Assembly (NCBI GenBank): GCA_965198005.1
Contig: CBDAOI010000004.1
Span: 448,001-512,000 of the forward strand
Source: Spirochaetia bacterium
Lineage (GTDB): Bacteria; Spirochaetota; Spirochaetia; SZUA-6; Bin103
DNA: 64,000 nt
Direction of reading: 5' to 3'
Positions within the stretch are counted from its first letter, which is position 1. Each line of letters begins with the position of its first letter. The notes beneath the pieces were generated by a model. That model was not told the DNA's origin and ran no database searches. It saw only the letters and a program-made list of their open reading frames with translations. This document shows, piece by piece, positions 1 to 24,367 of this stretch. A program made the position numbers and the translations under genes.

Positions 1-155
1 GCATGAGCCAGTCCGATGTGTCAAAGCTCGAGCGACGGCAAGACCTCCGACTCTCCACGCTCCAGGCGTACGCCCGAGCCCTTGGCGGCCGCCTCCAGCC
101 CATGTTCGTCACCGGCGCGAACGGCAAGCGGATACCGATCGCGATCCTGCAATGA
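1..155 (+). CDS. XRE-family HTH protein (HigA-like antitoxin), 3' part, cut by the window edge
   Basis: Frame from position 3 reads MSQSDVSKLERRQDLRLSTLQAYARALGGRL...ILQ*, a typical XRE recognition helix; not in the ORF track. Confidence 0.75.
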   Translation, partial: MSQSDVSKLERRQDLRLSTLQAYARALGGRLQPMFVTGANGKRIPIAILQ

Positions 156-186
156 TGCGGTCGGCCGGATCTCTGTGTCGGTCGGG

Positions 187-390
187 CAGGTCTTCGATTT
201 CTCAACCCTCGAGCCGGTGCCCGCCAGCTTCGTCCGCCACCGCTTGCGTCAGCGCCACGGTGACCTGGTCCGGCAAGTGCGCTTCCGCGGTGGCTGGTTG
301 TACCTGTTGTTGCTGCTGGAGTTCCAATCCACCATCGAGCCCGCCATGGCGGTGCGCGTGCTGACCTTCACCAGTCTGCAGCGCGAGAAT
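187..390 (+). pseudogene. Rpn/YhgA-like (transposase_31) nuclease, internal fragment
   Basis: FDFSTLEPVPASFV...RHGDLV...LYLLLLLEFQSTIEPAMAVRVL; no start and no C-terminus. Confidence 0.75.
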
Positions 391-435
391 CCTACCGTCG
401 CGGGGTCGTGGCCACCGAGGGGTGTCGATTCACGG

Positions 436-596
436 GGCGCTCCTTTGAGAGCCTTCTCAGCTGCTTGCTGAGCCAACCAGCAGACGTGTCGGGGAGGAAA
501 CCTGGCCTCGGACGATAGCGCCTCGGCAACCTCGAGGTCCTCGCGAGCGAAGCGCAGCCATCGGCGAACATCGTTGAGCAGTTCACTATCGCTCAT
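436..596 (-). pseudogene. HEPN-domain toxin, 3'-truncated
   Basis: RRWLRFAREDLEVAE...VCWLAQQAAEKALKG then unrelated sequence; overlaps the end of the MNT gene. Confidence 0.75.
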
Positions 597-900
597 ACAA
601 GACCGTGCCCTCCCGCAGCGCAGGCCTCAGCACGCTGCCCACGAGATCGCCCCGACGGGAGATTTCTTCGGGCGTGGTCACCACGATGTCCTTGCTCACA
701 GGCACATCGCCAAGGGCGCGGCGGATCTCTACGGTAGTGCTGCGCTTGTCGGTCGCCTCGCGAAGCACAACCAGCAGATCAACGTCGCTATCGGTGACGG
801 CTGATCCCCGGGCATGCGAACCGAACAGAATGATGCGCAACGGTTGGAATCGCTGCACAACCCGCTCGACCATGGTGTCAATCGTGGCATTCACAGTCAT
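586..900 (-). CDS. Minimal nucleotidyltransferase (MNT) antitoxin
   Basis: IILFGSHARG...DSDVDLLVV motif, 104 aa, upstream of the HEPN gene. Confidence 0.9.
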   Translation of the reverse strand: MTVNATIDTMVERVVQRFQPLRIILFGSHARGSAVTDSDVDLLVVLREATDKRSTTVEIRRALGDVPVSKDIVVTTPEEISRRGDLVGSVLRPALREGTVLYER

Positions 901-960
901 GTGTCACTATCGGCGAGAGTCCCCAACACGTCCCGGGAGTAGATCTCGACCAGCTACCGT

Positions 961-1120
961 ATGCTCGACAGTATACCTTGGGAGAGTCCGATCCGAATAT
1001 CCGTTCCATGACCTCTGCAGGCTGCTGGAGTCGCTGAGCGTGGTCAAGTGCGAGACCATCATCTACTGGAGCAACGACGACGAGGCGTTCATCGTTGAAG
1101 TGCCGGGGCTTCCCGGCTAA
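961..1120 (+). pseudogene. HicA-like/HicB-like TA remnant (toxin N-part fused to antitoxin N-part)
   Basis: FHDLCRLLESL joined directly to KCETIIYWSNDDEAFIVEVPGLPG*, a HicB N-terminus with an early stop. Confidence 0.65.
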
Positions 1121-1238
1121 GGAACGCGCAGCGTTCCGTGCACCACGGGCGCCCGTATGCGGGACCAGACGAACCTGCTGTCGCTGGGTCTTCTAAGGTC
1201 TTCCATAGGCCATGATTGAGCAACACGGATGGAAGTAG

Positions 1239-1493: not shown

Positions 1494-1584
1494 CCGACGG
1501 CCCTGGTTTCCCGGCAGGCGGCCCGACCACAGACAAGCGGCACCGCTTAGGTATACGCTGGTCGCGCTATGAGATCGGTAACCG

Positions 1585-2438
1585 TGATGTTATCGACGCT
1601 ATGATGGCTGAAATGATCCAAAGCTTCTCCTTGGACCGTGAACTCATTAGGCATAAGCTCGGGCTGGATGTACCAGTATATGTCCAGTATGGTCGTTGGA
1701 TTGGAGGAGTGCTGCAAGGCGACCTGGGGGTGTCACTCAGGGGAGAGCAGGCTATTACTCCGAAGATATTAGCCAGGTTTCCGGTGACGTTCGAGCTGGG
1801 AGTGTTTGCCGTCGGACTGCTGATATCGTGCCGATCGGCATCTCCCGATCATGGCCATTCGCCAGAATACCATCGGCGACTACGCCGGGCGCGGCATAGC
1901 CGTCACCTTCATCTCAGTCCCGACCTTCTGGACGGCTACCATGGTCATGCTTTACCCCGCTATCTGGTGGGGATGGTCCCCCTCGATGGAACTGATTCGT
2001 CTCACGGAGGACCCGCTCGGTAATCTGGGGATGTTTCTCGTCCCGGCCGCGATCCTGGGGACGGTCCTTTCGGGAACCACGATGCGGATGACGCGCACCA
2101 TGGCACTGGAGGTGCTGCGGCAAGACTACATCCGGACCGCCTGGTCGAAGGGACTCAGGGAGAAGATCGTCGTGATGCGGCATGTCTTGAAGAATGCCCT
2201 CATTCCGGTCGTGACCATCGTCGGCTTTCAGCTGTCCATCCTCATCGGCGGTTCGGTCATCATTGAGCAGATCTTTGTCCTCCCCGGCATCGGCACGCTC
2301 CTGCTGGACTCCATTCAAAGGCGAGACTACCCCATCGTCTCTGGCATTAACCTGTTTTTCGCGACTGCCGTGGTCCTCATCAATCTCCTGATCGACCTGA
2401 GCTACGCCTTCCTGGATCCCCGGGTCCGCTACCGCTAG
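1585..2438 (+). pseudogene. Peptide/nickel ABC permease (OppB/DppB-like), 5'-truncated and frameshifted near 1825-1850
   Basis: LGLDVPVYVQYGRW...GDLGVSL in one frame; QDYIRTAWSKGL...LSYAFLDPRVRY in another; first TM helix missing. Confidence 0.8.
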
Positions 2439-2985: not shown

Positions 2986-3106
2986 CGGCAGCGCGAGCCC
3001 GGACTATTCCCCCGTAGGGAAAAACAAGCATGCGGCGCGGCACCTTGGCGACAAGCCGGTTGCCGGCCAAACCGGATCTGCGCCGGCCCGGGCCGGTGGG
3101 AAGCTA

Positions 3107-3221
3107 CTCAGGGCGAGCCTGACGCTGGGTGACGACACGCTGGAGCGTACCTGCCGCGAGGCGATGAACAGCGCCGGACCGGGTGACGCGCTGAGCCTGC
3201 CGCTGAGTCGCTGGGCCGCTG
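3107..3221 (+). repeat. 115-bp diverged copy of an internal part of the ATPase gene (9491-9605)
   Basis: Both encode LRASLTLGDDTLER.C..AMNSAGPG.ALSL.LSRWAA; gap-free DNA alignment by eye. Confidence 0.9.
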
Positions 3222-3234
3222 GGCCGCTGCCGGC

Positions 3235-3427
3235 CGACGCCGCTGGTCGATCGTATGCGGATGCTCATGGACTCGCGGTCACCGGCCTTGCTGGCGTACT
3301 GCTTGCCGCCAAGAGGGCGAGCTTGGTGGAGAGCGTCAGGCCCTTCTTCGAACGATTGGCTGCGCGGGATTTCAGACTCTCGGACCAACTCGTTCAGGCC
3401 ATCCTCGAACAAGCAGGCGAAACGTGA
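3235..3427 (+). pseudogene. DUF3368-like (PIN-related) protein, C-terminal fragment
   Basis: GLAVTGLAGVLLAAKRASLVESVRPFFERL...FRLSDQLVQAILEQAGE. Confidence 0.7.
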
Positions 3428-3475
3428 TGCGGGTCTGGGCGATAGCGCTGGTCCTAGAGCACGGCCGCTCGGTCA

Positions 3476-3661
3476 CGCCTGCATGAGCTCGATGATGAGG
3501 TTGCTGAACTTGCTGCGGGTGTCGAAGTAGACGGCGCTGCGAGAGGTCTTGCCGGCAGGGATGATGCTCAGGATGACCGGGAAACCCCGCTCCACCAGCT
3601 TGGCCGCCTCTGCTTCCGGATCGTCAACCGTGTAGGCAATGTGGCCAACCCCCTCGCCGCT
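3476..3661 (-). repeat. 186-bp near-identical copy of the 3' part of the VOC gene (13134-13319)
   Basis: Direct repeat with 2 mismatches seen. Confidence 0.95.
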
Positions 3662-3706
3662 TCGGCATCACCCTGGCGGATGTCCTGCCGACCCTGACTG
3701 GCGAGC
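3660..3706 (+). repeat. 47-bp direct repeat of 8807-8853
   Basis: cttcggcatcaccctggcgga(t/c)gtcctgccgaccctgactggcgagc, 1 mismatch. Confidence 0.95.
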
Positions 3707-3749
3707 GCGAGTAATCGAATCGCGACGGCGAAACTGGCTCGCCCGCCGC

Positions 3750-5427
3750 GCCAGGTATTCGCCGGGCAACCGTCGGCCCGGCCGGGGGTGCCGCAGGACG
3801 GAGCGCGGTGGTGGCGTTCAGGCCTGGTCGGCCGCCACCGCGAACGCGGTCACGTTGCGGCTCTGGCGGCTGAACTCCACCCCGATCAAGTGAATCGGTT
3901 GCCCCAGGTGGCGGTACTTGGCCGCGTAGTCGCGGCTCTGGAGCTGCGCCAGCGCGCCCCCCTCCGGCTCCATCTCCACCACCTTGAACTCGAACAGGTA
4001 CACCTGCCCGCCGGTGCGCACCGCCAAGTCCACCCGCCCGTGGCTGGTCGCGTCTTCCACCGTGAGATCATATCCCAGGGCCGCGAAATACGAGAAAAAC
4101 ACGCTCGCGTAGTAGCCCTCGTAGTCGGCGATGTGGTTGTTCGTGTACCACTGGTACGGGATGCTGGCGAAGAACGCCTGAAACAGCTCTTTCATGCCGT
4201 CGAAGTCGTTGGCCTCCAGCAGCCGGTACAGGCGGATGCGGTTGGCGGTCTGGCCGCTGGTGTCCTGCACCAACTGGCCCAGCAGTTGCTCGTTCAGGCT
4301 CTGGCGCACCTCGCGGTTGGGGTAGCGCAGCCGATACAGGACGTTGCCGCCCAGGTCCTCCTCGCCCTCGATGGTCAGGTAGCCGGTCTGGAACAGCAGC
4401 GCCTCGGTGGCGATATGCTCGGCGGCGGTGCGGCCGCCGACGTCGAACGCCCCCAGCAGCTCGGCGGTGGTCACCGTCTCGCCCAGGGTCACCGAGCTGA
4501 CCCGGCGCCGGTACAGGGTCTCCACCAGGAAGCGCGGGGTGCCGGTCTCGAACCAGTACGGGGCGAACTTGCGGCTGTCGAACAGGCGCAGCAGGTCGTA
4601 GGGGTTGTACATCTTCTCCGTGCCCAGCCAGCAGTAGCCGTTGTACCAGGCGCGGATCTGCTCTCGATCCAACCCCGGCAGCTCAGGAGCGAACACCGTA
4701 TCCAGGTCGGCGTCGGTGTAGCCGCAGATCGACGAGTAGCGCCGATCCAGGGTGATGTCGGTGAGGTTGTTCAGATCCGAAAAGAGGCTCACCTTCGAGA
4801 ACTTGCTCACCCCGGTCACGAAGGTGAACCGCACGTGCGCGTCGCTGGCCTTGATCATCCCGTACAGGCCGCGCAGGTAGTCACGGTTGGCGAGCGCCGC
4901 CTCCGGCTCCTCCAGCGCGTCCAGGATCGGCTTGTCGTACTCGTCCACCAGCACCGCCACCCGCTGCCCGCTCTCCCGGTGCAGGGCTTCCAGCAGATAG
5001 CGGAAGCGCTCAGGCGCGGTGTCGTAGCGGCCGGTCACGCCCAGCTCCCGCTCGATGCCCTCCAGCTGGGCCATCACGTTCTGGTGCAGGTAGCCCGGGT
5101 CCCTGAAGCTGCCGCCGGCGAAGTCCAGCCGCACCACCGGATGGCGCACCGACCACTCCCAGCGGTCATGGATGTACAGCCCCTGAAACAACTCCTCGCT
5201 GCCCGCGAACAGCTCCTTCAGGGTGTCCACCAGCAGGCTCTTGCCGAACCGCCGCGGCCGTGACAGGAAGTAGTGCTTACCCGCTTCGTGCAGCCGCCAG
5301 ATATAGGCGGTCTTGTCCACGTAGTAGTAGTCCTCTTCCCGGATCTCGCGAAAGGTCTGGATGCCAAGGGGCAGCCGCCGCTTACGTGCCATCGGCTCAT
5401 CCTACCCCGCGCGCGCGCTCCTTGCCA
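3750..5427. repeat. 1678-bp duplicated unit, copy 1 (copy 2 at 7120-8797)
   Basis: Same offset (3370) at both ends; includes the ATPase gene, 35 bp upstream and about 68 bp downstream. Confidence 0.95.
3818..5392 (-). CDS. AAA-ATPase-like domain plus C-terminal PD-(D/E)XK nuclease (PDDEXK_9-type), paralog 1
   Basis: LPLGIQTF, YVDKT, Walker A RPRRFGKS, Walker B LVDEYD, GRVDL...FEFK. Confidence 0.92.
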   Translation of the reverse strand: MARKRRLPLGIQTFREIREEDYYYVDKTAYIWRLHEAGKHYFLSRPRRFGKSLLVDTLKELFAGSEELFQGLYIHDRWEWSVRHPVVRLDFAGGSFRDPGYLHQNVMAQLEGIERELGVTGRYDTAPERFRYLLEALHRESGQRVAVLVDEYDKPILDALEEPEAALANRDYLRGLYGMIKASDAHVRFTFVTGVSKFSKVSLFSDLNNLTDITLDRRYSSICGYTDADLDTVFAPELPGLDREQIRAWYNGYCWLGTEKMYNPYDLLRLFDSRKFAPYWFETGTPRFLVETLYRRRVSSVTLGETVTTAELLGAFDVGGRTAAEHIATEALLFQTGYLTIEGEEDLGGNVLYRLRYPNREVRQSLNEQLLGQLVQDTSGQTANRIRLYRLLEANDFDGMKELFQAFFASIPYQWYTNNHIADYEGYYASVFFSYFAALGYDLTVEDATSHGRVDLAVRTGGQVYLFEFKVVEMEPEGGALAQLQSRDYAAKYRHLGQPIHLIGVEFSRQSRNVTAFAVAADQA

Positions 5428-5508
5428 CACCACCCGACCGCTCAGGGTTCATCAAGCGCCCCAGATGGCCGGCGTGTCGACAGGAGCAGGACGGGGCGAA
5501 TCAATGAT

Positions 5509-5546
5509 TTCGACCGCACGCCGGACCGAACCTGGGCGGAAAGATC
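5509..5546 (+). repeat. 38-bp copy of the 3' end region of the ATPase gene (10697-10735)
   Basis: ttcgaccgc(a/g)cgccggaccgaacctgggcggaaa(a)gatc. Confidence 0.85.
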
Positions 5547-5592
5547 CAGAAGTTCGACGCCGAGCCGGGTAGTGAGTAAACTCACTACCACT

Positions 5593-5675
5593 ATGCGTGC
5601 AGCCGAAATGCAGGCGGTGCTCGAGGCGGCCGCCCGCCTCCAAGCGCTGGTGCCTGATGCGGTCCTGGTCGGTGA
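5593..5675 (+). pseudogene. N-terminal fragment of an AbiEii-like nucleotidyltransferase
   Basis: MRAAEMQAVLEAAARLQALVPDAVLVG, ends at the expected LVGG motif. Confidence 0.5.
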
Positions 5676-5695
5676 GTACTGCCGGGAGCATGAAC

Positions 5696-5757
5696 CGCCA
5701 CCACCGCCACCACCGCGCCACTCGTGCCACTTGTGCCACCACTTGTGCCACTTGCAC
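5696..5757. repeat. Degenerate short tandem repeat (gccac units)
   Basis: ccgccaccaccgccaccaccgcgccactcgtgccacttgtgccaccacttgtgccacttgcac. Confidence 0.7.
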
Positions 5758-6133
5758 TTTCGTGGCGGGTATGAGAGGGTGAGGGCCTGATGCGAAGCGT
5801 CGCTAGCGAACACGGGGGCCGGTCGCGGTTGAGTGTGGCGACCGGCTTGACCACTTTGGCCGCGGCGGGTATGCCCGGATCCTGCGCACCGACGTCGTTA
5901 TTACCGGCGACCAGCCGGAATGAGCGCCGCCCGTGACCATCGGTTGACGGACGACGCCGAGAATCAGACCACCGCCGCCAGCGAGCGTATGAAGCGCGGC
6001 CAGCACTGCTGGAGACGGCGCATCCTCGGAAGATCGCAGCGAGCGTGGGCGGTTTCGGTCACGGTGACCTCGAATTCGCGACAGGTGAGCTTGGCGAGCC
6101 GTCGATGCCGAGCTTGTGCGCGGCGTACAGAAC

Positions 6134-6913
6134 TCAATGCGCGCGCCAACGCCTTGCAACAGCCGACAGTTGGTCAGCCTGGGCTCTCCAGCGATCGATC
6201 TCCAGGTTCAGGTTCCGGCGCTCCACCGGTGTGAGATCGCCGACTTTCTCTCTTCGCCAGAGCTCATGTTCAGCCAGGCGACAGTACGATTCTGCCAACA
6301 ACAGGTCGGAATCGTCTACGAACCCGAACGCTCTATGCCACGCCCTGCTCTCCTCATTACCGAGGTTGTATCGACTTTTCAACGTCCTGTGGCCGCTCTC
6401 ATACAGTTGCATGAGAGTCGCTGACACAAGGGCTGTAGCTACGCCCATTCGTTGCCACTCCGGGGTAACGAATAGTAGCTCCAACCGCACGGATTCGTCC
6501 TTCATTTCGGCTACGAGGGCAGCACCAACGACTGACTCCTGCTCGACTTCCGGATGGGCGACCAACGCTAGGCGCGACGCCGCAAGAGGCTTTCCGCGGG
6601 CGCCGGAGAAGAATCCGATCACGTTGTCTCTGGCCGGCTCGACGATTCTCGTCTCCTCCCAGTCACAATAATCGATGGTATCTCTGAAGGCGGCCACGTA
6701 AGCGGCAATCATCGCCGGCTCGTAGCTGCTTGCCGCGGGCCGGGTCCGACAAGGAGATCGGCATGGACGGGGTTCGATTTCGAGGGACGTGGAGACTGAC
6801 CGATGGGCGGGAGAGATATGCGCTTGCCCGCTCCAGTACTCATACTTCCATCCTGGCTCTCTCGCCATCAGGTGGAACTCGTCAATGGTCATGGTCAGGT
6901 GTCGGGTACGCAT
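6134..6913 (-). CDS. GNAT-family N-acetyltransferase
   Basis: LFVTPEWQRMGVATAL acetyl-CoA motif; NEESRAWHRAFGF. Confidence 0.85.
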   Translation of the reverse strand: MRTRHLTMTIDEFHLMAREPGWKYEYWSGQAHISPAHRSVSTSLEIEPRPCRSPCRTRPAASSYEPAMIAAYVAAFRDTIDYCDWEETRIVEPARDNVIGFFSGARGKPLAASRLALVAHPEVEQESVVGAALVAEMKDESVRLELLFVTPEWQRMGVATALVSATLMQLYESGHRTLKSRYNLGNEESRAWHRAFGFVDDSDLLLAESYCRLAEHELWRREKVGDLTPVERRNLNLEIDRWRAQADQLSAVARRWRAH

Positions 6914-7015
6914 CGGAGTATGGAGGAGAACAGCACCGGAGCTGACCACAATCGGCAGGGTCAGCGGGGCTCTCTACCTTTCCATCATGAGGGTACCATG
7001 ACCAATGTCAATAGT

Positions 7016-7100
7016 CTGCTTCGACCAGTTGCTCGGTGATCTCGAACGCTTGCAGTTGGTGCTCGACGCCATCCCCGATGAACCGCTCATGCATCAGCCA
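7016..7100 (+). mobile_element. Short N-terminal fragment of a DDE transposase (IS1182/IS5-like)
   Basis: LGDLERLQLVLDAIPDEPLM resembles a transposase N-terminus recalled from memory. Confidence 0.5.
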
Positions 7101-7187
7101 GGCTGGGCCGATGGACACGGCCAGGTATTCGCCGGGCAGCCGTCGGCCCGGCCAGGGGTGCCGCGGGCCGGAGCGCGGTGGTGGCGC

Positions 7188-8762: not shown

Positions 8763-8945
8763 CGGCTCATCCTACCCCGCGCGCGCGCTCCTTGCCAGGA
8801 AAACGACTTCGGCATCACCCTGGCGGACGTCCTGCCGACCCTGACTGGCGAGCTGGAGTAGCCGAGCCGACCACGTCGTCGTCAGGCAGATGGCGCCAAG
8901 CTCCTACCCGCCGGCCGGACTCGTGCAGGAAGCGCTCCTTCAGTC

Positions 8946-13737: not shown

Positions 13738-13738
13738 C

Positions 13739-13766
13739 GCCTCGGCCAAGTGGGGAGTGGCCGGGC
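13739..13766 (+). repeat. 28-bp exact copy of SDR coding sequence 12752-12779
   Basis: gcctcggccaagtggggagtggccgggc. Confidence 0.9.
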
Positions 13767-15769: not shown

Positions 15770-15804
15770 GTTGCAGGAGTCGATGAACCTCCCCGCGCGG
15801 GCGC

Positions 15805-15990
15805 TCTGCGCATCGACTTCGGGCTCCACGCAACATCGCCCGCGGACGGCCCATTCGTCGAATTGCTCGAGCAGGCGACCGAGACCGTGCTCGACCGCCA
15901 CGTCCTCATGGTGCCCACGATCATGGTCGGCTGCACCGATTCGCGCTGCGTGCGACCGCTCGGTACGGCCGTGTATGGGTTTCAGCCGTT
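15805..15990 (+). pseudogene. M20-family metallopeptidase, C-terminal fragment
   Basis: VPTIMVGCTDSRCVRPLGTAVYG. Confidence 0.55.
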
Positions 15991-16099
15991 GGTCCGGCCG
16001 CCGGGGCCCGCCCAACGTATCGGTTGTTGACCGTTCGCATACGCGGGATAATCATTGAGACGGAGCTTGCAGCCGGGGAGGCGAGATCGTGGGTCGACG

Positions 16100-16186
16100 A
16101 TTACAGTCTGAACATGTTCGGCGACGCGGTGCGCGACCTGCTCGATCCGCGGTTGCGGGGTGGCGGCAGCCGCCTCGGTGCCTAAC
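16100..16186 (+). pseudogene. 3' tip of an OppC-like permease
   Basis: YSLNMFGDAVRDLLDPRLRG; similar to 18830-18886. Confidence 0.75.
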
Positions 16187-16200
16187 TGAGGGGGTTCGGC

Positions 16201-16518
16201 GTGAGCATCCGGAACACTGGCAATAGGCAAGCGCGGCCCACCCATCCGGGCGAGATGCTGCGAGAGGACTTTCTACCCGACTACCGGCTGACGATCTCGG
16301 GTCTTGCTGGCGCGGTGGGTGTCTCGCGCCAGACCATCAACGATCTTGTCCGTGAGCGTCGCGCGGTGAGCCCGGACATGGCGCTGCGTCTTGCACGGCT
16401 GTTCGGTAACTCTCCCGAGTTCTGGCTCAACGCACAGCGTGCGGTGGACTTGTGGGATGCAGCCCAGGCCATCAGAGGCGCCGTAGAGCTTATTAGGCCG
16501 TTGGTCGTTGCGAATTAA
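16201..16518 (+). CDS. higA: HigA/VapI-family antitoxin (orphan)
   Basis: PTHPGEMLREDFL...SPDMALRLARLFGNSPEFWLNAQ; no toxin upstream. Confidence 0.88.
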   Translation: MSIRNTGNRQARPTHPGEMLREDFLPDYRLTISGLAGAVGVSRQTINDLVRERRAVSPDMALRLARLFGNSPEFWLNAQRAVDLWDAAQAIRGAVELIRPLVVAN

Positions 16519-16666
16519 GAGGAATCCAGGGAATCAGGGCTGCCACCCGTCGGGCTCAGGCGCGGACCGAGACGACGTCGTAGCACATGATCCGCTCGTC
16601 GCGTGTCAAAATCGTCAGCCCGGAGGCGCTGGCACAAACGTGGACGCTCGGGTATGTTCGTCGGCG

Positions 16667-17725
16667 ATGGCACCAATACAGAAGGGCGGCACGGTCGCAG
16701 TTACCGGCGCCGCCGGCTTCATCGGCGGCTGGGTGGTCCGGCGGCTGCTGGACAAGGGCTACCGCGTGCGCGCCTGCGTGCGCGACGCCGATGATGCAAC
16801 CCGCACCACGTTTCTGCGCCAGATGCCCGCCTACGCGTCGGGCCGACTCTCCATCCACAGCGCCGACCTAGACCAGGCCGGCTGTTTCGACCGCGCCTTT
16901 GCCGGCTGCCGCGGCGTGTGTCACGTGTCGCACGTCAGCAAGTACAACGATATGGACTACGTGCAGATGGTGTGCGATCACACCATCGCCAGCATCGACA
17001 GGTCCGAGAGCGTCGGCCGGGTGATCGTCACCTCCAGCCTGGCGGCCGTGTCGGCCGAGGTGGACCGGCAGGAGTTGGCGCCGCGTCCGGTGCTCTACGA
17101 GGACCGCTACCCGAACGAGCACCACCCGGACTGGTCGGCCAAGCGCGCCGGCTACGCGATGGGGAAGCTCATCGCCGAGCGCTCGTTCGCCCAGGCCGCC
17201 GAGCGCAGCGGGAGCTGGGAGTCGATCGCGTGCCTGCCCGCCGACAACGTCGGCCCGATCCAGTCCGCGCACCAGAAGGACATGGGGCCGTGGCAGCACC
17301 GCATCGAGATGATGCTGCTGGGTGAGTATCCGCAGACCGAGGATTACAGGCCGTGGATGCCGGTCGACGTGCGCGACGACGCCGACTGCCACATCGGCCT
17401 GCTCGAGAGCGTGCAGGTGCGCAGCGGCGAGCGCTACCTTGCCTGGGCGGCCGAGATGCACAGGGTGGAAGCAATCGACCGTCGCATTGGCCAGCTGCTG
17501 CCTGAGCTCGGGCGCGCCGAAGCTTCGGTCGCCGACAGTCAGTCTGCGGAAACGAAGGCGCAGGAGGCGGAGCTGCGAGCGATCTGGGCTGGCTGCGACC
17601 TGCGCAACGACCGCGTTCGCGCCGTCACCGGCGTCGAGTTTCGGCCGTTCGATGAGTCGCTGCGCGACTGCGTGGAGTCGTTGCTGGCGGTTGCCAACGT
17701 GCCGGCAAAGAACAGGGTTGGCTGA
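16667..17725 (+). CDS. NAD-dependent epimerase/dehydratase (flavonoid-reductase-like extended SDR)
   Basis: VAVTGAAGFIG, TSS, YAMGK, VDVRD. Confidence 0.9.
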   Translation: MAPIQKGGTVAVTGAAGFIGGWVVRRLLDKGYRVRACVRDADDATRTTFLRQMPAYASGRLSIHSADLDQAGCFDRAFAGCRGVCHVSHVSKYNDMDYVQMVCDHTIASIDRSESVGRVIVTSSLAAVSAEVDRQELAPRPVLYEDRYPNEHHPDWSAKRAGYAMGKLIAERSFAQAAERSGSWESIACLPADNVGPIQSAHQKDMGPWQHRIEMMLLGEYPQTEDYRPWMPVDVRDDADCHIGLLESVQVRSGERYLAWAAEMHRVEAIDRRIGQLLPELGRAEASVADSQSAETKAQEAELRAIWAGCDLRNDRVRAVTGVEFRPFDESLRDCVESLLAVANVPAKNRVG

Positions 17726-17770
17726 AATCCCCCAAGGCGCACCACGGGGACTGGCTTGACCCCCGCGGCA

Positions 17771-18365
17771 CCTGGCCGAGCGCTGGGAGCAGCCCGACCC
17801 GACCACCATCGTGTTTCACATCCGCCAGGGCGTGAACTGGCACGACAAGGCGCCGATGAATGGTCGCGCGCTCACCGCAAAGGACGTGGAGTTCAACTTC
17901 CACCGCTACCTCGGGCTAGGCAGCGGCTTCACCGAGCCACCGGAAGGCGCGGCGGCCGTGGGGCCCATAGACGACATGGGATTCACCTCGGTAACGGCAC
18001 AGGGCAACACGGTCGTCTTCAAGCTTGCGGAGCAGAACCTGGACGCTGTCAAGACGATCCTTACGCAGAACGTCCTGTTTATCTATCCACCGGAGGTGAT
18101 TCGGGCGGGGACCGGTGTCGATATCGGCGATTGGCAGAACCTGGTGGGCACCGGACCCTACGAGCTTACCGACCTGGTGGAAGGCAGCTCCGTCACCTGG
18201 GAGAAGGCTCCCAACTACTGGGCGTTCGATGAGAAGTTCCCGCAGAACCGACTGCCCTATATCGATAGCATCAACGCGCTGGTGATGCCGGAGGCGCAGA
18301 CGCGTCTGGCGGCGTTGCGCTCGGGACAGGTCGACTTCCTCGGCTTCCATGGCAGTTCTCAGGTG
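17771..18365 (+). pseudogene. Peptide ABC substrate-binding protein (family 5), internal fragment ending at the intron
   Basis: WEQPDPTTIVFHIRQGVNWHDK, VGTGPY, LPYID, RLAALRSGQVD. Confidence 0.85.
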
Positions 18366-18600
18366 GTGCGCCAGGCTAACTGGCATATGACAGAGGGTGG
18401 GAGTCCCTTGAAGCGAAGGAATAACCGATCCACGCTTCTCCGCGAGCCGTGCGCTTGCACCCGCGAGGGTGCAGGCGAAGCGTCGGTAGCGGTGCGTGCG
18501 GGCGGACTATTGAGCGTCGAAAATGACATGGTCTGGAGTGCCGAGGTTTTCACTGCTGCCGAAGGCAACACCGGTTATGTCGCTATGGTGAGACCTGACC
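18366..18600 (+). mobile_element. Group II intron 5' fragment (part of domain I only)
   Basis: Starts GTGCG; GAGGGTGGGAGTCCCTT hairpin, GCGAAGCGTCGGTAGCGG, TTGAGCGTCGAAA, GAGTGCCGA...GAAGGCAACAC in the usual order; no RT ORF or domain V/VI. Confidence 0.75.
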
Positions 18601-18754
18601 GGCGCTGCGCGATCTGCTGAACGGCGGCGCGCAGGGCGACTTCCGCTGCGTGTACGCCAACGTCGAGGATGGCCAGGCGATGCGGGAGAACGTGGCGGCG
18701 GGCATGCCACCGTGCTTGCCGAACTGGCGCTCCAGGCCAGCATGACGCTGGGCG
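18601..18754 (+). repeat. Diverged fragment of the 9191-family ATPase (cf. 9361-9515)
   Basis: ALRDLLNGGAQGDFRCVYANVEDGQAMRENV. Confidence 0.85.
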
Positions 18755-18903
18755 AAGGGCGGCGGTACATGGAGCTGGCGCCGCGCTTGGCGCTGTGGCT
18801 CGGTCTGTTCCTGACGGTGACGGTGTACTGCCTCAACATGGTGGGCGACGCGGTGCGCGACCTGCTCGACCCGCGCCTGCGCGGGCAGATCGGGCGGTTC
18901 GGC
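18754..18903 (+). pseudogene. 3' end of an OppC-like permease
   Basis: EGRRYMELAPRLALWLGLFLTVTVYCLNMVGDAVRDLLDPRLRG. Confidence 0.85.
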
Positions 18904-19042
18904 GGCGCCAGGCACGGTATCGGCCGCCGCGGCCGGGCTGAGTCCGCACTGGGCAGCACGCACCGTCCGGAGGATCGACGGATGCGGACGGTGCATGACG
19001 ACACACGCGACCTGATAATCTGGCGGCGTTGCACTTGACATC

Positions 19043-19672
19043 CTACGGCAGCACCAGCGCCCGCACTTCTCGGATGAAGAACTGCTTGCACGGCGACCAT
19101 TCGAAGGGCGCAAGCATGCGCGGCAGCGGCTCCGCTTCGGCATCGTCGAAGTAGGTCAGGCTCATCGCTACCTGATAGGGATTCAAACGGCCCGGTCCAT
19201 ACTTCCGCGGCAACAGTTGCAGGTAATCGCCGAGAGCGGGACCGGTCTGCAGGATCGAAAACAGGTCGACGAAGTCCCTGCGGCTGCCGCGATTGGTTAC
19301 CGCCAACAGCTTCATCAGAGCGATGTCGCGCACGTCGGCAACGCCGAAGAACGTGTACGGTGTCACCGGAAACAGGAACGGATCCCCAACCTGAAAGAAG
19401 GACAGCTTGACGCCTCGCATGAGCACGCTCAACGTGCGCTCATCCGAGTACAGGGTGTCGCACGCGGCCACTTCCCCCAACTTGTCGAACAGCGTCGCGG
19501 TGTCTACGCCGCGCACGCAAAAGAAGTCCAAGTCCTCGGAGATTCGGTGGCCGAGCTGCAGCGCCAACCCGGTTCCGCCGGCCAGCACCCAGCCGCAGAA
19601 CTCGGCGGCCCCGCGGCCGTTCAGCGAGGCCAGGAGCTCGCCGCTGGTTGCTGGGAGCACTTCCGTGTGCAC
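19043..19672 (-). CDS. AbiEii/AbiGii-family nucleotidyltransferase toxin
   Basis: LAGGTGLALQLGHRISEDLDFF; MKLLAVTNRGSRRDFVDL. Confidence 0.9.
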   Translation of the reverse strand: MHTEVLPATSGELLASLNGRGAAEFCGWVLAGGTGLALQLGHRISEDLDFFCVRGVDTATLFDKLGEVAACDTLYSDERTLSVLMRGVKLSFFQVGDPFLFPVTPYTFFGVADVRDIALMKLLAVTNRGSRRDFVDLFSILQTGPALGDYLQLLPRKYGPGRLNPYQVAMSLTYFDDAEAEPLPRMLAPFEWSPCKQFFIREVRALVLP

Positions 19673-19944
19673 GCCACACCCTCCAGTTTCAGAACGGCGT
19701 CCCACAGCGCGGCCACCTTCGCCGATTGCATTCTGACGCCGGAGATCGTTTCCAGAAACGCGCGCCGCCCCATGACTGCCGCGAGCCCGCGTACGTCTTC
19801 CAGATCACCAAAGTGGATGACCCGCGAAACCACCCAACGGGGATACGTTTCCAAGTCGGTGGCGGACAGGGGGCGATCCCAGAACAACCTGGCCGCCCGC
19901 TGCAGAACACGATCCCTGGAGACCATCCCCCGCGGTCGCTGCAT
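19621..19944 (-). CDS. Putative cognate antitoxin (DUF6922-like)
   Basis: LFWD...DLETYPRWVVSRVIHFGDLED; overlaps the toxin start. Confidence 0.7.
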   Translation of the reverse strand: MQRPRGMVSRDRVLQRAARLFWDRPLSATDLETYPRWVVSRVIHFGDLEDVRGLAAVMGRRAFLETISGVRMQSAKVAALWDAVLKLEGVACTRKCSQQPAASSWPR

Positions 19945-20035
19945 CGTTCTGCCAGTATAGCACGAACGGAGCCTCCCCGCGTTGGAGGATCGTGCGAAGC
20001 GAGCCATGCTGGCGGCTGAGTGGCAACAGCAGGGC

Positions 20036-20077
20036 GCGGGCGCCGCGCCGTTCGACCGGCTGCGTGCGGTCGGCTGT
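20036..20077 (+). repeat. 42-bp exact copy of dienelactone hydrolase coding sequence 23894-23935
   Basis: gcgggcgccgcgccgttcgaccggctgcgtgcggtcggctgt. Confidence 0.92.
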
Positions 20078-20131
20078 GGTACCATGGACGCCATGACTGG
20101 GGACGGCGCGCCGAGCCGTAGGGCGCACGGG

Positions 20132-20386
20132 ATGCTCAGCCGCGATTCGTCGCCCGAGGTCGAGCGGCTGCAGATCGACCTCTGGCGGCGGATGTCACCT
20201 CTCGACAAGGGGCGCGCCGTAGATGGCCTGAGCCGCGCTACCGATGAGTTGGCCCTGGCCGGTATCCGGCAACGCCATCCGCACGCCCCCGAGCACGAAT
20301 GCCGGCTGCGTCTCGCCGTGCTCAAGCTCGGCCCGCAGCTCGCGGCTCGCGTGTACCCGGAGGCGGCAGCTCTGTTCGACTCCTGA
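20132..20386 (+). CDS. Small conserved hypothetical protein, possible antitoxin-like partner
   Basis: DSSPEVERLQIDLWRRMSP...LAGIRQRHP pattern recalled from genes upstream of nucleotidyltransferases. Confidence 0.55.
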   Translation: MLSRDSSPEVERLQIDLWRRMSPLDKGRAVDGLSRATDELALAGIRQRHPHAPEHECRLRLAVLKLGPQLAARVYPEAAALFDS

Positions 20387-20480
20387 TGGGGCAGGGCGGG
20401 TAGGGTCAGTTACTACCGACCACTCTCCGGCGGCCCGGGCGGTCGGCAACACCAACGCGAGAACGCTGCTGCACGATGGC

Positions 20481-20509
20481 TTGACACGGCTCTGCCGCTG
20501 GACTATCAA
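20481..20509 (+). promoter_or_regulatory. Putative sigma70 promoter of the cupin-ADH-GH2 operon
   Basis: TTGACA-17 bp-TATCAA; GGAGG then ATG at 20543. Confidence 0.5.
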
Positions 20510-20542
20510 GGCGTTCCCAGAACGACCTGGATGGAGGCAACG

Positions 20543-20985
20543 ATGGAGAACGAGAAAGGTCCACCGAGGCGGACGTAGCGCAATTCAGCGCGCCGGAGAA
20601 GTTGACCGAGGCTACCGCGGTCAATCCGGACGACGTCGACTGGCTGTTCCTGAAGAAGCCGGGTGGCGTGGTCGACCTGGTGGAACCGGGGGATAGCTGC
20701 TTCAAAATCGTGATTCCGGGGGACAAGCTCCAGGCCGGCATCTGGCAGGCGCTGCCCGGCGAGGTATTCTGGATGGATCTGCACCCCGAGAGCGACGAGT
20801 TTTGGTACATCATCAAGGGTGAGTGCACCTTCTGGCTGCCCGACACCAAAGAGATGAAGACCGCCAAACAGGGCGAGTTCTTCTACGTTCCCGCCGGGGT
20901 GCGCCACCAGTCGATCAACCGCTCGACCGAAGAGCTGGTGCTGATCTACGCGTCCGCTCCGGTGGTATCGGCCACCCATCACTAG
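20543..20985 (+). CDS. Cupin-domain protein (probable 1-nt frameshift near 20557; main ORF 20602-20985)
   Basis: LHPESDEFWYIIKG...FYVPAGVRH. Confidence 0.75.
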
Positions 20986-21008
20986 GCGCCCCGCCGCCGG
21001 AGGTAATC

Positions 21009-21834
21009 ATGGAAACTCGCGGCATCTATCTGCCGGGCAACAAGGAAGCCCACGTCAAGGAGTGGACCGTGTCCGAGCCACGCGGCGACGAGGTGCTGAT
21101 TCAGGTCAAGGCGGCCGCACTGTGCGCCAGCGACATGAGCATCTACAAGGGGAATCCCCTGATCCCGGGCTATCCTTCCGGCACGTTCATCGTCGGCCAT
21201 GAGCCGTGCGGCATCGTCGCCGGGACCGGCCCCGACGTGCGCCGGGTGCGCGAAGGCGACCGGGTGGCGATCATCGCGTTCACGAGCTGCGGCGACTGCG
21301 ACTACTGCCGCACCGGAGAGCCGATGCTGTGCGCTGAGATGGGGGTGATCGGGTTCACCGCGCACGGCGGCGACGCCGACTACCTGGTCGTGCCCGAGCG
21401 CATGTGCCTGCCGCTGCCGGACGCGGTCAAGCGACGTGGTCGGCGCCATTTCCACCGACGTGCTGGGCAACCTCTACTCCACGATGAACGAGCTGGAGCT
21501 GGGCGCGGACGACCTCGTGGCAATCGCCGGCTGCGGCCCGATGGGCCTGGCGGGCGGGAACCATGGCGTGGTCGCCCAGATCGGCGAACCGGGCGACCAG
21601 CCGATCACGATCAACCCCAGCGAGCAGTTGATCAGAAAGAAGCTCACCTACCTCGGGTCATGGTACTTCAAGCTGACCGAGTGGGACCAAATCATCGACT
21701 TCATCCTGGCGATCGGCAACGACAAGGCGGAACGGATCGTCTCGCGCCGGTACCGGCTGGAGGAGGAAGCCGCGAGCGAGGGCTTCCGCCTGTTCAGCGA
21801 GCACAAGACCCTCAAGGTCGTCTTCACTCCCTGA
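21009..21834 (+). pseudogene. Zn-dependent alcohol dehydrogenase, frameshifted (~21430) and internally deleted (~21553)
   Basis: LCASD, GHEPCG, CGDCDYC; GCGPMGLAG jumps directly to NHGVVAQIG. Confidence 0.85.
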
Positions 21835-21851
21835 GCGACCGCGCGCGCACG

Positions 21852-23459
21852 ATGAGCCTGTACGCTTCCACCACCCGCAGAAGGCTGGACCTGGCCGGGC
21901 TCTGGCAGTTCAATCCGGACGAGGGAGAACTTCCCCCGGAGGAGTGGCGCGACGATCTGACGATGCTGCTGCCGGGGTGTTGGAACACGCAGAATCCCGA
22001 GTACTACTACCAGCCGATCGCCTGGACCAGGAGGGAGGTGTTCGTGCCTGCCGACTGGCCGGCCGCCTGCCGGTTGTTTTGCGGCATCCACGCCTGGGAA
22101 CTGGCGGTATGGGTGAACGGCAGTCGGGCCGGCGCGCACACCGGCTATCTCTCCACCTGGCTCGAGGTCGAAGTGCAGCCGGGCAAGCTGAACACCTTCC
22201 TGCTGCGCATGGACGCGTCCGAGACGGACGACCGGATCGGTACCCGCTTCGACGTCAACAACCCAGGCGGCGTGTTCGGGGCGCTGGTGCTGGAAGCGCG
22301 GGCAGCGGTTTCGATCAGCGACTTGGGCGTGCGCACCGAGCTGGCCGGCGGCGGCGCGCTGGTGCGGGTGACCGCGCGGGTCGCGGGGCAGGGGGACGCG
22401 CTGCGGCTGAGGATCCTCGACCGCGGGCGCGAGCTGGCCGCGCACGCCACCGCGCCGGCGCGGGACTCGGTGGAGGCAGCGATCGCCGTGCCGCAGGCGC
22501 GGCCTTGGTCACCCGACGACCCGTACCTGTACACCCTTGAGGCGGAGGTCGAGGCCGCCGGCGCCGCCGTCGATCAGGTATCGCTCCAGTTCGGAATTCG
22601 CACCATCGAGGTGCGGGAGCGGGCCATCTACCTCAACGGCGCGCCCCAGTCGATCCGCGGCATGCTCACGTTCAACGATCATCCGGACACCTCGCGGCAT
22701 CTCCCGACCCACATCATTCTCAAGGACTTCTGGATCGCGAAACATGCCAACGTCAACGCCTGGCGCCACCACTACCCGGCGTCCCAGGAATTCCTCGAGC
22801 TGGCCGACCGGTACGGCTTCCTGGTGATCGAAAGCGTGCCGCTGGTGTGGAACGAGCTGGGCGTGTTCCACGACTGGTATTCGGATGAGGAGTACAAGCA
22901 GATCGTCAAGGACGTGACCCGAGAACTGCTGCGCGAGGCGGAGCGGCTGGATCCGACGCGGTTCGCGCTGTTCGCCACCGGGCTGATTCTCGATGAGCTC
23001 TGCCTGGAGCTGGAGGAAGCGCGGGTGCTGGGCATCAACCTGTACCCGCGGGTGTACGATCCGCACATCTGGAAGACCAGCGATCCGTTGGCCGCCGAGC
23101 TGCAGAAGGGCGTCGAGGTGCTGAGCTTCGTACGGCGGAAGTTTCCCGACAAGGCGATTCTGATGACCGAGTTCGGCTGGCAGACGATTCCCGGACTGCG
23201 GGACTTCCGCAACTGCAACTGGTCGGAGGACTATCAGGCGAAGTTCATCGGCAAGCTGGTGCCCGAGATGACGCGCATCGGCGTCTGCGGGTTCATGTTC
23301 TCCTGCTACGCCGACTGGATGACCCGTCCGGTGATGAAGGCGCCGATCGAGGCCGAGCGGCCGGGCGAGCTTGGGTACTGGGGAATGGTGGATCAGTACC
23401 GCCGGCCGAAGCTGGTGTACAACACGATACGGGACCTGTACGGAGCAATGAAGTCATGA
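21852..23459 (+). CDS. Glycoside hydrolase family 2 (beta-glucuronidase-like), apparently lacking the acid/base segment
   Basis: WSPDDPYLY, FGIRTIEV, RHHYP, LDPTR, MTEFG; no NHPS...WS..NE. Confidence 0.8.
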   Translation: MSLYASTTRRRLDLAGLWQFNPDEGELPPEEWRDDLTMLLPGCWNTQNPEYYYQPIAWTRREVFVPADWPAACRLFCGIHAWELAVWVNGSRAGAHTGYLSTWLEVEVQPGKLNTFLLRMDASETDDRIGTRFDVNNPGGVFGALVLEARAAVSISDLGVRTELAGGGALVRVTARVAGQGDALRLRILDRGRELAAHATAPARDSVEAAIAVPQARPWSPDDPYLYTLEAEVEAAGAAVDQVSLQFGIRTIEVRERAIYLNGAPQSIRGMLTFNDHPDTSRHLPTHIILKDFWIAKHANVNAWRHHYPASQEFLELADRYGFLVIESVPLVWNELGVFHDWYSDEEYKQIVKDVTRELLREAERLDPTRFALFATGLILDELCLELEEARVLGINLYPRVYDPHIWKTSDPLAAELQKGVEVLSFVRRKFPDKAILMTEFGWQTIPGLRDFRNCNWSEDYQAKFIGKLVPEMTRIGVCGFMFSCYADWMTRPVMKAPIEAERPGELGYWGMVDQYRRPKLVYNTIRDLYGAMKS

Positions 23460-24160
23460 GTGGCAACGGCAGCAACGGCAGCAACTGGGAGACCGTGACG
23501 GTGCAGGGGGCGCCGATGCGCACCTTCGTCGCGCGGCCGGCCGCACCGGTCGCGGCGCCGGGGATCCTGGTCGTCCAGCATGCCCCGGGAGTGGACCGGT
23601 TCGTGCAGGAGATGACGGCGCGCCTGGCCGCCGCCGGCTACGTGGCCGCGGCCCCCGACCTGTACCACCGGCAGCATCCGGCGCCGGCGGCGCCGCTGGC
23701 GCGCATGGCCCGGCTGCGAGACGGCGAGATCATCGACGACTGCAACGCCGTGCTCGACCATCTCGCGGCACGGCGGCTGGGAATCGTCGGCTTCTGCATG
23801 GGCGGGCGCGTGGCCTACCTGATGGCCGCGGCCAGCGACCGGCTGCAGGCGGCGGTGGCGTTCTACGGCGGCAACACGCGGGTGGCGTGGGGTGCGGGCG
23901 CCGCGCCGTTCGACCGGCTGCGTGCGGTCGGCTGTCCGGTGCTGGGTCTGTTCGGCGGCCGCGACGAGAACCCCTCCCCCGAAGACCGCGACGCCATCGA
24001 CGGCGAACTGACCCGCCACGGCGTGCCGCACACCTTCCATACCTTCGCCGCCGCCGGTCACGGGTACATGGACTTCAGCAATCCGCAGCGCCACGACCCG
24101 GCCGCCGCCGCTGCCTCCTGGCCGCTCACGCTGGAGTTCCTGCAGCGCTATCTCAAGTGA
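23456..24160 (+). CDS. Dienelactone hydrolase family protein
   Basis: APDLY, GFCMGG, AGHGY. Confidence 0.92.
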   Translation: MSGNGSNGSNWETVTVQGAPMRTFVARPAAPVAAPGILVVQHAPGVDRFVQEMTARLAAAGYVAAAPDLYHRQHPAPAAPLARMARLRDGEIIDDCNAVLDHLAARRLGIVGFCMGGRVAYLMAAASDRLQAAVAFYGGNTRVAWGAGAAPFDRLRAVGCPVLGLFGGRDENPSPEDRDAIDGELTRHGVPHTFHTFAAAGHGYMDFSNPQRHDPAAAAASWPLTLEFLQRYLK

Positions 24161-24219
24161 TCCCAGCGATCCGCGGACGCTTGATCGATCAATTCGAGCG
24201 CGCGTACTTGGTCGCGGGC

Positions 24220-24340
24220 GATAGTCAGCAGCTCGCTGGCGGCGAGCAGGAAGGCGCCGACGCCGTATTCCATCGTGTGCTCGCGCCGGGCGCCGGGCAG
24301 TCCCGACCTTTGCCCGACGAACGGGCGGAATAGTCCCGTG
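24220..24340 (-). pseudogene. GH88/GH105-like C-terminal fragment
   Basis: TMEYGVGAFLLAASE. Confidence 0.55.
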
Positions 24341-24367
24341 CCGAGGTGAAACGCCAACGTCGTGACG

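Follow-up and report, generated by a model that had tools for sequence, protein, structure and literature searches.

A mosaic of abutting gene scraps in an uncultured sponge-associated spirochaete is probably a flexible genomic island decayed by stacked deletions

We analysed a 64,000-nucleotide stretch of DNA (hereafter the window) from a Spirochaetia bacterium (GenBank assembly GCA_965198005.1, contig CBDAOI010000004.1, here C4, positions 448001-512000), in which positions 1-24360 hold a mosaic of truncated and intact genes that belongs to what we call the island. The genome (G000) is a metagenome bin of 4.89 Mb in 4 contigs with 66% GC, a completeness of 90% and a contamination of 3.3%, and the sequencing runs that hold the window stretch include sponge metatranscriptomes. 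Three congeners served as references, namely G003, G005 and the closest relative, G001, a closed 7.0-Mb genome of the same genus. An earlier note, made from the letters alone, had described over 20 unrelated coding scraps joined end to end and had proposed a localised, undescribed cut-and-join process as their cause.

Pieces were identified with Pfam (288 stop-to-stop open reading frames (ORFs) of at least 55 aa in 1-26.6 kb), with Rfam on the DNA, and with blastn and blastp against the bacterium's own genome; six-frame own-genome blastp tiling was dropped as too noisy at 66% GC, and greedy tiling was used instead. The description of scraps joined end to end stands in part: we count about 26 truncated genes or scraps within 1-24360, together with about 15 intact-looking genes that fill about 11.9 of the 24.36 kb, roughly half of the span. 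The intact-looking set comprises MNT, two DUF1703-type genes, GNAT, an AAA_22-type gene, two short-chain dehydrogenases (SDRs), glyoxalase, HigA, an epimerase, an AbiE unit, a cupin and a dienelactone hydrolase (DLH). Among the fragments first listed, Rpn, HEPN, oppB, oppC (three times), oppA, DUF3368, AbiEii, the ThDP enzyme, PhyH, a transposase and a group II intron were recovered by Pfam, Rfam or own-genome blast. The proposed M20 peptidase found no match, the GH88/105 piece is GH2 instead, HicA/B came down to 24-30-aa matches to small own-genome ORFs with no Pfam hit, and AbiEi to a sub-threshold DUF6922 match. Pieces that had been missed are two AAA_22-type scraps, a glyoxalase scrap, a VapC remnant, DUF4143 pieces, a 46-nt DLH scrap and internally deleted zinc alcohol dehydrogenase (ADH) and GH2 genes.

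The window opens with the end of a repeated unit running in from upstream (1-152; 92.8-93.6% identical to three sites in G001, at L013 and L014), and the run just before it (C4:446950-447998) is 93-94% identical to G001 and G003. There follow a forward-strand Rpn/Transposase_31 fragment of about 61 aa (196-378; PF04754 profile 27-93 of 203), matching aa 87-147 of a 386-aa own-genome ORF, and, on the reverse strand, only the N-terminal third of a HEPN toxin gene (438-569; PF05168 profile 1-42 of 117) beside an intact MNT nucleotidyltransferase antitoxin gene (589-903; PF01909 2-79 of 93, with a weak MntA match). Two short scraps (24-30 aa) of small proteins at 1046-1197 (forward) were placed by own-genome small-ORF matches, including 54-nt matches at 92%, with no Pfam hit. 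The next five pieces are all on the forward strand: a 5'-truncated oppB (1584-2438), whose BPD_transp_1_N and BPD_transp_1 domains are split over two frames by a frameshift near 1830-1850; the N-terminal half of oppC (2450-2991; aa 7-194 of 313, OppC_N and BPD_transp_1 2-94 of 184); a scrap of the gene that comes next after oppC in G001 (2993-3103; aa 129-165 of a 240-aa ORF, by own-genome and G001 matches); an AAA_22-type ATPase scrap (3107-3221; aa 55-92, 90-92% identical to full copies); and a DUF3368/PIN-type C-terminal end (3245-3424; PF11848 1-46 of 46 at the ORF end, aa 86-144 of 148). A glyoxalase C-terminal scrap (3459-3661; Glyoxalase_4 64-109 of 109, 95% identical to G001) lies on the reverse strand. 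It is followed by a repeated spacer that accompanies the DUF1703-type units (D6, 3660-3749) and adjoins the gene 3' end in G001 (L012) at 97%, by the intact DUF1703-type gene 1 (3818-5392, reverse, 524 aa; AAA-ATPase_like and PDDEXK_9 by Pfam) and by a reverse-strand scrap (5482-5682) of aa 123-186 of a 244-aa ORF just upstream of the window, 94% identical to C4:446954-447081.

Further on, Pfam identifies an intact-looking GNAT acetyltransferase (6134-6949, reverse; 93% identical to G003 over 6116-7016) and the intact DUF1703-type gene 2 (7188-8762, reverse, 524 aa), with a second copy of the D6 spacer (8795-8862) and a 75-nt oppA scrap (8881-8955, reverse; aa 182-206 of 541, 92% identical to C2:51601-51527) beyond it. 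An intact AAA_22-type ATPase gene of 532 aa (9191-10789, forward; weak AAA_22 match in Pfam) occupies a repeated unit at 9146-10835. On the same strand are an intact SDR by Pfam (10883-11728), inverted relative to its neighbours in G001 (L015), a VapBC-type remnant (11760-12214; VapC profile 79-131 of 143) with a deletion at 12031-12035, and a second, intact-looking SDR by Pfam (12245-13072), the last 142 nt of which are 96% identical to C2:237357-237498. An intact glyoxalase (13122-13589, reverse; Pfam 1-109 of 109, 94-95% identical to G001) precedes a run of forward-strand pieces: a 90-nt scrap of a ThDP enzyme (13649-13738; TPP_enzyme_M 31-63 of 137), and a 54-nt internal scrap of a DDE_Tnp_1 insertion sequence (IS) (13776-13829), 92-100% identical to about 20 copies and lying inside the transposase ORF of L108 and L109. 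Next come the unit downstream of the IS and then multi-copy sequence found upstream of opp operons (13829-14258; up to 70 copies by blastn), and the C-terminal two thirds of a PhyH dioxygenase (14230-14874, forward; PF05721 58-211 of 213).

The right-hand part of the mosaic holds forward-strand DUF4143 ATPase C-terminal pieces in two frames (15262-15766; Pfam) and the last 27 codons of an oppC (16102-16182, forward; own-genome matches), with which a 1.67-kb block begins that continues through HigA antitoxin (16201-16518) and NAD epimerase (16508-17725) genes, both intact by profile matches and on the forward strand. Four forward-strand scraps then abut: oppA (17772-18365; aa 29-226 of 513, SBP_bac_5 5-176 of 368), which stops at an intron insertion site; a group II intron cut down to its first 237 nt (18366-18602; Rfam RF02005, 130 bits); an AAA_22-type scrap (18601-18755; about aa 57-108, up to 94% identical to full copies); and the C-terminal end of oppC (18752-18959; aa 241-301, own-genome matches). 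AbiEii (19043-19705; Pfam and PADLOC) and its upstream partner lie on the reverse strand at 19041-20009 and are 83-89% identical as a unit in G001, G003 and G005. Beyond the forward 46-nt scrap of a DLH gene (20032-20077; repeat D8) come an intact cupin (20602-20985; Pfam, and in G003 L016), an ADH pseudogene (20951-21831) in which only ADH_N remains, a GH2 glycosidase pseudogene (21821-23459) and an intact DLH gene (23456-24160; Pfam), all forward. An 878-aa open frame at 20823-23456 spans the two broken genes ADH and GH2 and is an accident of high GC, a caution for automatic annotation, where false long ORFs can arise in high-GC DNA.

The right border of the island is sharp. From 24368, two MacB-type permease genes (24368-26827, reverse; Pfam) mark the start of the core, and they and the sequence downstream are colinear and 78-81% identical in G001, G003 and G005, in agreement with the earlier placing of the end at about 24.4 kb. 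The mosaic does not start at window position 1, as had been taken, but upstream, at about C4:441.7 kb; a LeuA-like core gene ends at C4:441694 and is followed by a DUF1703-type gene and then a UvrD-type helicase, which form the left part of the island. The helicase (L019:15862-18870, equal to C4:443862-446870) adjoins the DUF1703-type unit and encodes 1003 aa with two topoisomerase-type zinc ribbons. The island thus defined spans about 31 kb, that is window 1-24360 plus about 6.3 kb upstream. Its core flanks are 76-78% identical to the congeners, against 85-99% for the island pieces, which match many places, and GC is 0.56-0.70 within it against 0.70-0.74 just downstream. The distance between the two flanks is 350 kb in G001 and 1.8 Mb in G003, and in G005 they fall on separate contigs, so the island sits at a synteny breakpoint.

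The Pfam scan of 1-26.6 kb revealed no integrase or recombinase family, and no tRNA target or direct-repeat borders were found for the island. A repeat search of 1-30000 (seed 14, minimum 40 nt), which did not extend to shorter or degenerate attC-like sites, found no inverted repeats and no regularly spaced repeat family. No integrase or attC-like repeat had been seen from the letters either, and with no integrase next to the array and no regular attC-like repeats of at least 40 nt found, the locus differs from an integron or cassette array. Mobile elements, toxin-antitoxin genes and defence genes gather in flexible genomic islands, also called regions of genome plasticity. The present island is like them in its core-gene borders, lower GC, content of high identity with other species and position at a synteny breakpoint, and also in its toxin-antitoxin and Abi genes, IS, intron and selfish genes; it differs in the integrase, tRNA target and direct-repeat borders not found and in that scraps from a greatly expanded transporter family make up an unusually large share of its content. 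This 4.9-Mb genome has about 140 opp/dpp-type operons that appear complete, and tblastn with one OppA, OppB and OppC query each gave 138, 146 and 133 loci, respectively, at 80% cover or more, plus many partial ones.

Comparison with the related genomes recovered intact versions of the broken genes in G001, G003 and G005, in the same order. With relatives or paralogs as reference, fragments are colinear with intact genes at eight joins in six gene groups, and every such join is a simple deletion, of 100-755 nt with 0-8 nt of microhomology. In G005 (L018), MNT is followed by an intact 143-aa HEPN gene, and the 95% identity of the window ends at 437. In G001, an intact oppB of 338 aa (L012) is 92.5% identical to window 1584-2438, and an intact 307-aa oppC (L012:18626-19546) is 94% identical up to window 2991; the sequence at window 2993 is found about 180 nt past oppC in G001, leaving the window without some 466-468 nt. 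The end-point 2991 recurs in seven G001 and G005 matches and was considered as a mobile-unit junction, a reading that we rejected, as the G001 locus has intact oppC genes continuing past it. The two halves of the VapBC remnant lie 306 nt apart beside the SDR in G001 (L015); they abut in the window, where the SDR is inverted. Also in G001, an intact 594-aa ThDP enzyme gene (L013:5546-7327) stands beside the glyoxalase, and the window lacks about 753 nt at 13649/13650. The IS scrap is joined to a point 475 nt further on, judged against three own-genome copies of the 1.48-kb DDE_Tnp_1 IS. Finally, G003 (L016) carries the cupin, an intact ADH (367 aa; 5931-7031, with ADH_zinc_N) and an intact GH2 (578 aa), relative to which the window is short of about 214 nt of ADH (at 21555/21556) and about 100 nt of GH2 (at 22848-22855, with 8 nt of microhomology).

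The joins are tight, as the earlier note had remarked, though not throughout: among 21 measured, 12 are spacer-free or overlap by 1-8 nt and nine have 1-61 nt of unassigned letters between the pieces. For 11 joins, three-way alignments gave a microhomology of 1-8 nt, and the donor-based values for six deletions are 0, 1, 2, 2, 8 and 1 nt, compared with about 0.77 nt for the null mean. Ku is encoded at C4:657693-658229 (140 bits) and an ATP-dependent ligase adjacent to it at C4:658655-659203 (100 bits), so that near-blunt end-joining after breaks is available to the bacterium. In the general sense of illegitimate recombination or end-joining, the mechanism first suggested agrees with this range of microhomology.

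The opp scraps at 17772-18959 illustrate how such deletions may stack. The Rfam match to the group II intron covers 18400-18623, and the intron opens with GTGCG at 18366, immediately behind codon 226 of oppA. A C2 oppA paralog reads straight through this position, so that the site is empty there, and a fuller copy of the intron lies on C3; the join between oppA and the intron is a genuine insertion of this mobile element. Past its first 237 nt the intron is missing, and its cut end abuts the AAA_22-type scrap, which is in turn joined to the oppC end. G001 carries an array on one strand of oppA-oppB-oppC, an AAA_22-type gene and again oppA-oppB-oppC, and the order and strand of the oppA, intron, AAA_22-type and oppC scraps in the window agree with it; we infer that three deletions in a G001-like array would yield exactly this series on one strand. 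Just before the intron, a 127-nt patch (18239-18365) that ends at the intron site is 99% identical to the otherwise clearly different C2 oppA paralog and may be a gene-conversion tract.

Taken together, these data indicate that the locus is probably an ordinary flexible 'junkyard' island of an uncultured sponge-associated bacterium, decayed by stacked deletions. In its original state, which we infer, the island would have held opp operon arrays, toxin-antitoxin pairs, small metabolic genes and selfish elements, the latter being the DDE IS, the group II intron and single-gene ATPase plus PD-(D/E)XK nuclease units. A large part of it would have been drawn from a gene pool common to the congeners, and both the content and the sharing are visible in the matches given above. 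Pieces were also duplicated inside the island, as near-identical repeats show: the glyoxalase scrap at 3476-3661 is a 99% direct repeat of 13134-13319, DUF1703-type genes 1 and 2 are 92.7% identical to each other, and the DLH scrap is 98% identical to its source, which shows recent duplication and agrees with the duplication followed by trimming that had been suggested. There would have followed numerous separate deletions, from about 0.1 kb to several kb in size, and one inversion or more, with ends joined at 0-8 nt of microhomology, as observed at eight joins and supposed for the rest. Each deletion would leave two truncated genes abutting with no spacer, and repeated deletion would collapse an array to short scraps while order, strand and high identity are kept. 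The joining itself would be due to Ku/LigD non-homologous end-joining or to RecA-independent illegitimate recombination, which leave the same scars.

On this reading, more than 20 scraps end to end need no new mechanism: insertion of mobile DNA and stacked deletions suffice, and relatives keep the intact genes. The island thereby offers a worked example of flexible-island decay in a sponge symbiont, not yet cultured, whose transporters have expanded to an extreme degree. A similar course is known from leaf-nodule Burkholderia symbionts, for which alternative end-joining was proposed to account for pseudogene decay with a deletional bias, as set out in excerpts of Danneels et al. (2018, PMC6054270). 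The likeness extends, as far as those excerpts go, to genes cut by deletion and not worn by substitution, short junction homology, genome-wide remnants and a symbiotic life. By the same excerpts, small indels are tabulated there, whereas the deletions in the island are mostly 100-750 nt or larger, and here several deletions are stacked in one island so that unrelated scraps abut.

The idea of a localised process was examined with five probe families (OppA, OppB, OppC, AAA_22-type and DUF1703-type genes). The whole genome holds 207 merged fragments of these families, against 446 loci at 75% cover or more. Sliding windows of 24.4 kb contain a mean of 1.03 fragments and the mosaic at 1-24360 contains 6, a density some six times that of the genome on average; counts of 6 or more occur in 45 of the 2400 windows, with a maximum of 9 at C4:184 kb. 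G001 too carries remnants, for example an oppC end before HigA (L011). The same decay acts genome-wide, and the island is only one of the denser spots. The observation made from the letters is real, its cause ordinary and the phenomenon not localised; an undescribed localised process was not found, and deletion-driven decay of a flexible island matches known phenomena. Cutting by a nuclease, also part of the first proposal, gains little from the distribution of the fragments: 14% of 183 Opp fragments lie within 10 kb of a full ATPase-nuclease gene, as compared with 6-7% of intact oppA (142 loci) and oppB (147 loci). We set this association aside as evidence because it is weak.

Several observations weigh against decay by stacked deletions. 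Only eight of the roughly 21 measured joins were matched to an intact reference, deletion collapse being extrapolated to the others, and the unassigned 1-61 nt at nine joins have to be accommodated. Of the six donor-based microhomologies, which answer the earlier call for a comparison with random expectation, the 8-nt case alone is individually above chance, so microhomology says little about the pathway. The 46-nt DLH scrap, copied from 3.8 kb away, fits simple deletion poorly, and the run of scraps at 2993-3661 (240-aa ORF, AAA_22-type, DUF3368 and glyoxalase) replaces about 417 nt of the arrangement found on C3 and in G001; both call for earlier insertion or duplication, unless fragments were captured directly. 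In addition, the short-read contigs described below bridge few joins among those listed, and joins 2991, 3661, 18365, 18602 and 18755 lie outside the listed pieces. The congener comparisons supplied no reference, empty-site ones included, for the 46-nt, 75-nt (oppA) or 115-nt scraps. G001 has an AAA_22-type gene and a glyoxalase placed tail to tail, in the same order as in the window, and the 46-nt and 75-nt scraps and those at 2993-3660 may be remnants of inserted blocks or captured filler DNA.

A rival built on these cases holds that Ku/LigD end-joining of breaks in the island actively captures short copies of other loci as filler, many scraps thus having been inserted as scraps, with the breaks possibly made by the multi-copy ATPase plus PD-(D/E)XK nucleases. 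The encoded Ku and ligase suit this account, as do the near-blunt joins (0-2 nt in five of six), the 98% identity of the 46-nt scrap to its source 3.8 kb off, the three heterologous scraps standing in place of about 417 nt of other copies, the four full nuclease-type genes and two scraps of such genes within 31 kb, and the modest excess of Opp fragments near nuclease-type genes. We nevertheless judge it unlikely: all joins that have an intact counterpart are plain deletions, over 85% of the Opp fragments lie away from nuclease-type genes, the order and strand of the scraps agree with the G001 arrays, and the ATPase-nuclease proteins have no known biochemical role, neither the AAA_22-type nor the DUF1703-type ones finding a match in PADLOC, NCBIfam or PDB sequences. 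Filler DNA, or templated insertion at end-joining junctions, is best known from eukaryotes. The likeness to it lies in brief copies of other loci placed right at joins that overlap by 0-4 nt; most scraps here, by contrast, are readable as remnants of longer genes. A fuller proposal, that Ku/LigD repair of breaks (possibly made by proliferating single-gene ATPase plus PD-(D/E)XK nuclease elements) both deletes DNA and patches the joins with 46-250-nt copies of other loci, is in our view quite unlikely. If true, it would be a bacterial counterpart of filler-DNA capture, by which scrap mosaics are built and a family of more than 140 transporter operons is shuffled over time.

Stacked deletions in place have also to be weighed against import, in which congener segments, some of them already truncated, would have entered by homologous recombination anchored in multi-copy opp and AAA_22-type genes, with the other end joined illegitimately. 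Exchange of this kind has left traces. The island pieces share 85-99% identity with genomes that are 76-78% identical in the core, and the 1.67-kb block at 16102-17775 (oppC end, HigA and epimerase) is 98.7% identical to G001 (L011), with the core at about 78%; to judge by these identities, the block indicates recent exchange between species. It begins inside the conserved last 81 nt of oppC, an expected anchor under import, and the 127-nt patch common to the C2 oppA paralog at 99% points the same way. As the source of most of the mosaic, import is distinctly improbable. None of the window joins was found at the loci compared in G001, G003 and G005, and the joins are therefore younger than the transfers; import accounts for the origin of the pieces and not for their truncation.

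That the mosaic is an assembly chimera, made by a metagenome assembler walking between paralogs or strains, was considered with Logan short-read contigs of four runs from four studies, aligned over 5460-24400 as contigs only, without reads; one run is possibly the source sample, and at most two or three are independent. The stretch 14189-14765, which includes the PhyH join at 14230, is covered with 0 differences by contigs of runs X1, X4 and X8 from three studies. The same three cover 15231-16131, all without 22 nt at 15328, and otherwise with 0 differences in X4 and X8 and 2 in X1, and 12180-12701 is covered with 0 differences by X1 and X4 from two studies. Joins lie within each of these three stretches. 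A chimera would be favoured by the nature of the assembly, a metagenome bin of four contigs that is 90% complete and 3.3% contaminated, by the more than 140 opp operon paralogs and by the fact that most joins have no visible bridge in the listed contigs. We regard it as extremely improbable, since the three join-bearing stretches are reproduced in contigs of two or three studies, closed congener genomes hold the same kinds of remnant (the oppC end before HigA in G001 is one), and the joins link non-homologous sequences with overlaps of 0-8 nt, which we would not expect as a product of overlap or k-mer assembly. The artefact that the earlier note had itself raised is thus countered for the few joins covered among the contigs listed.

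Other contigs differ from the window. In one from X10, 238 additional letters stand precisely where the VapBC deletion lies (12028|12037), a single X1 contig has about 384 extra letters at 15232, and in a further X10 contig, of 2333 nt, the oppA piece is embedded at 99% identity in surroundings that are longer and not those of the window. Together with the 22 nt absent at 15328, this suggests that strains differ by deletions. Loose contig ends at 18505 derive from other copies of the intron.

The first reading had seen no integrase, attC-like repeat or IS ends that explain the joins. The island does contain mobile elements, namely the inserted group II intron, the DDE IS scrap, the Rpn fragment and multi-copy ATPase-nuclease units, for one of which an empty site is demonstrated. 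Three families of multi-copy ATPase plus PD-(D/E)XK nuclease genes are present, and four full genes and two scraps of this type lie within the 31 kb. The AAA_22-type unit (9146-10835) has 11 full and 12 partial copies in the genome, with 70-93% nucleotide identity and sharp ends. Its gene is also multi-copy in congeners and is found at 57-67% amino-acid identity in metagenome-assembled genomes titled Binatia, Latescibacterota, Multivorans, Acidobacteriota, Gemmatimonadota and Gammaproteobacteria.

A single-gene DUF1703-type unit of 1.81 kb (AAA-ATPase_like plus PDDEXK_9, 590-aa frame) lies 4.5 kb upstream of the window (L019:13740-15550, equal to C4:441740-443550) and again at L099:2974-4853. 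It has 9 copies in this genome, at 88-91% identity and with sharp ends, and congeners hold dozens more. One of the copies lies within the initial codons of an oppC, between oppB and oppC, and the orthologous operon of G003, whose flanks are 94% and 90% identical, is continuous at that point, which makes it an empty site. The unit looks like an undescribed gene-sized mobile element without transposase or integrase. The three single-gene ATPase-nuclease families, which behave like mobile DNA, are a more promising lead than the island beside which they were found. Expansion of the DUF1703 family (AAA-ATPase_like plus PDDEXK_9) has been described in Cardinium cCpun, with recombination among copies and a horizontal origin inferred and secreted nucleases proposed, according to excerpts of Siozios et al. 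(2019, PMC6387759). On the basis of those excerpts, the two cases share the two-domain architecture, the many paralogs and a host-associated bacterium. They differ in that copies here have 88-93% nucleotide identity, against a mean amino-acid identity of 39% there, and in the sharp unit borders and the one empty orthologous site seen here, which suggest mobility.

The 1.48-kb DDE_Tnp_1 IS from which the 54-nt scrap derives is found at L108:349-1832 (equal to C4:393849-395332) and at about 25 other places. Its family includes at least seven full copies at 96-98% and many 5'-truncated copies that share one right end beside the sequence found upstream of opp operons. The one-sided loss is probably explained by selection on the operon side. 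We had considered the 5'-truncated copies as reverse-transcribed copies; loss on the side away from the operon is the simpler reading, because three copies share one truncation point in duplicated operon contexts. Downstream of the island, 9 kb beyond its right border, a complete rRNA operon (16S, tRNA-Ala, 23S and 5S) occupies 33209-38572.

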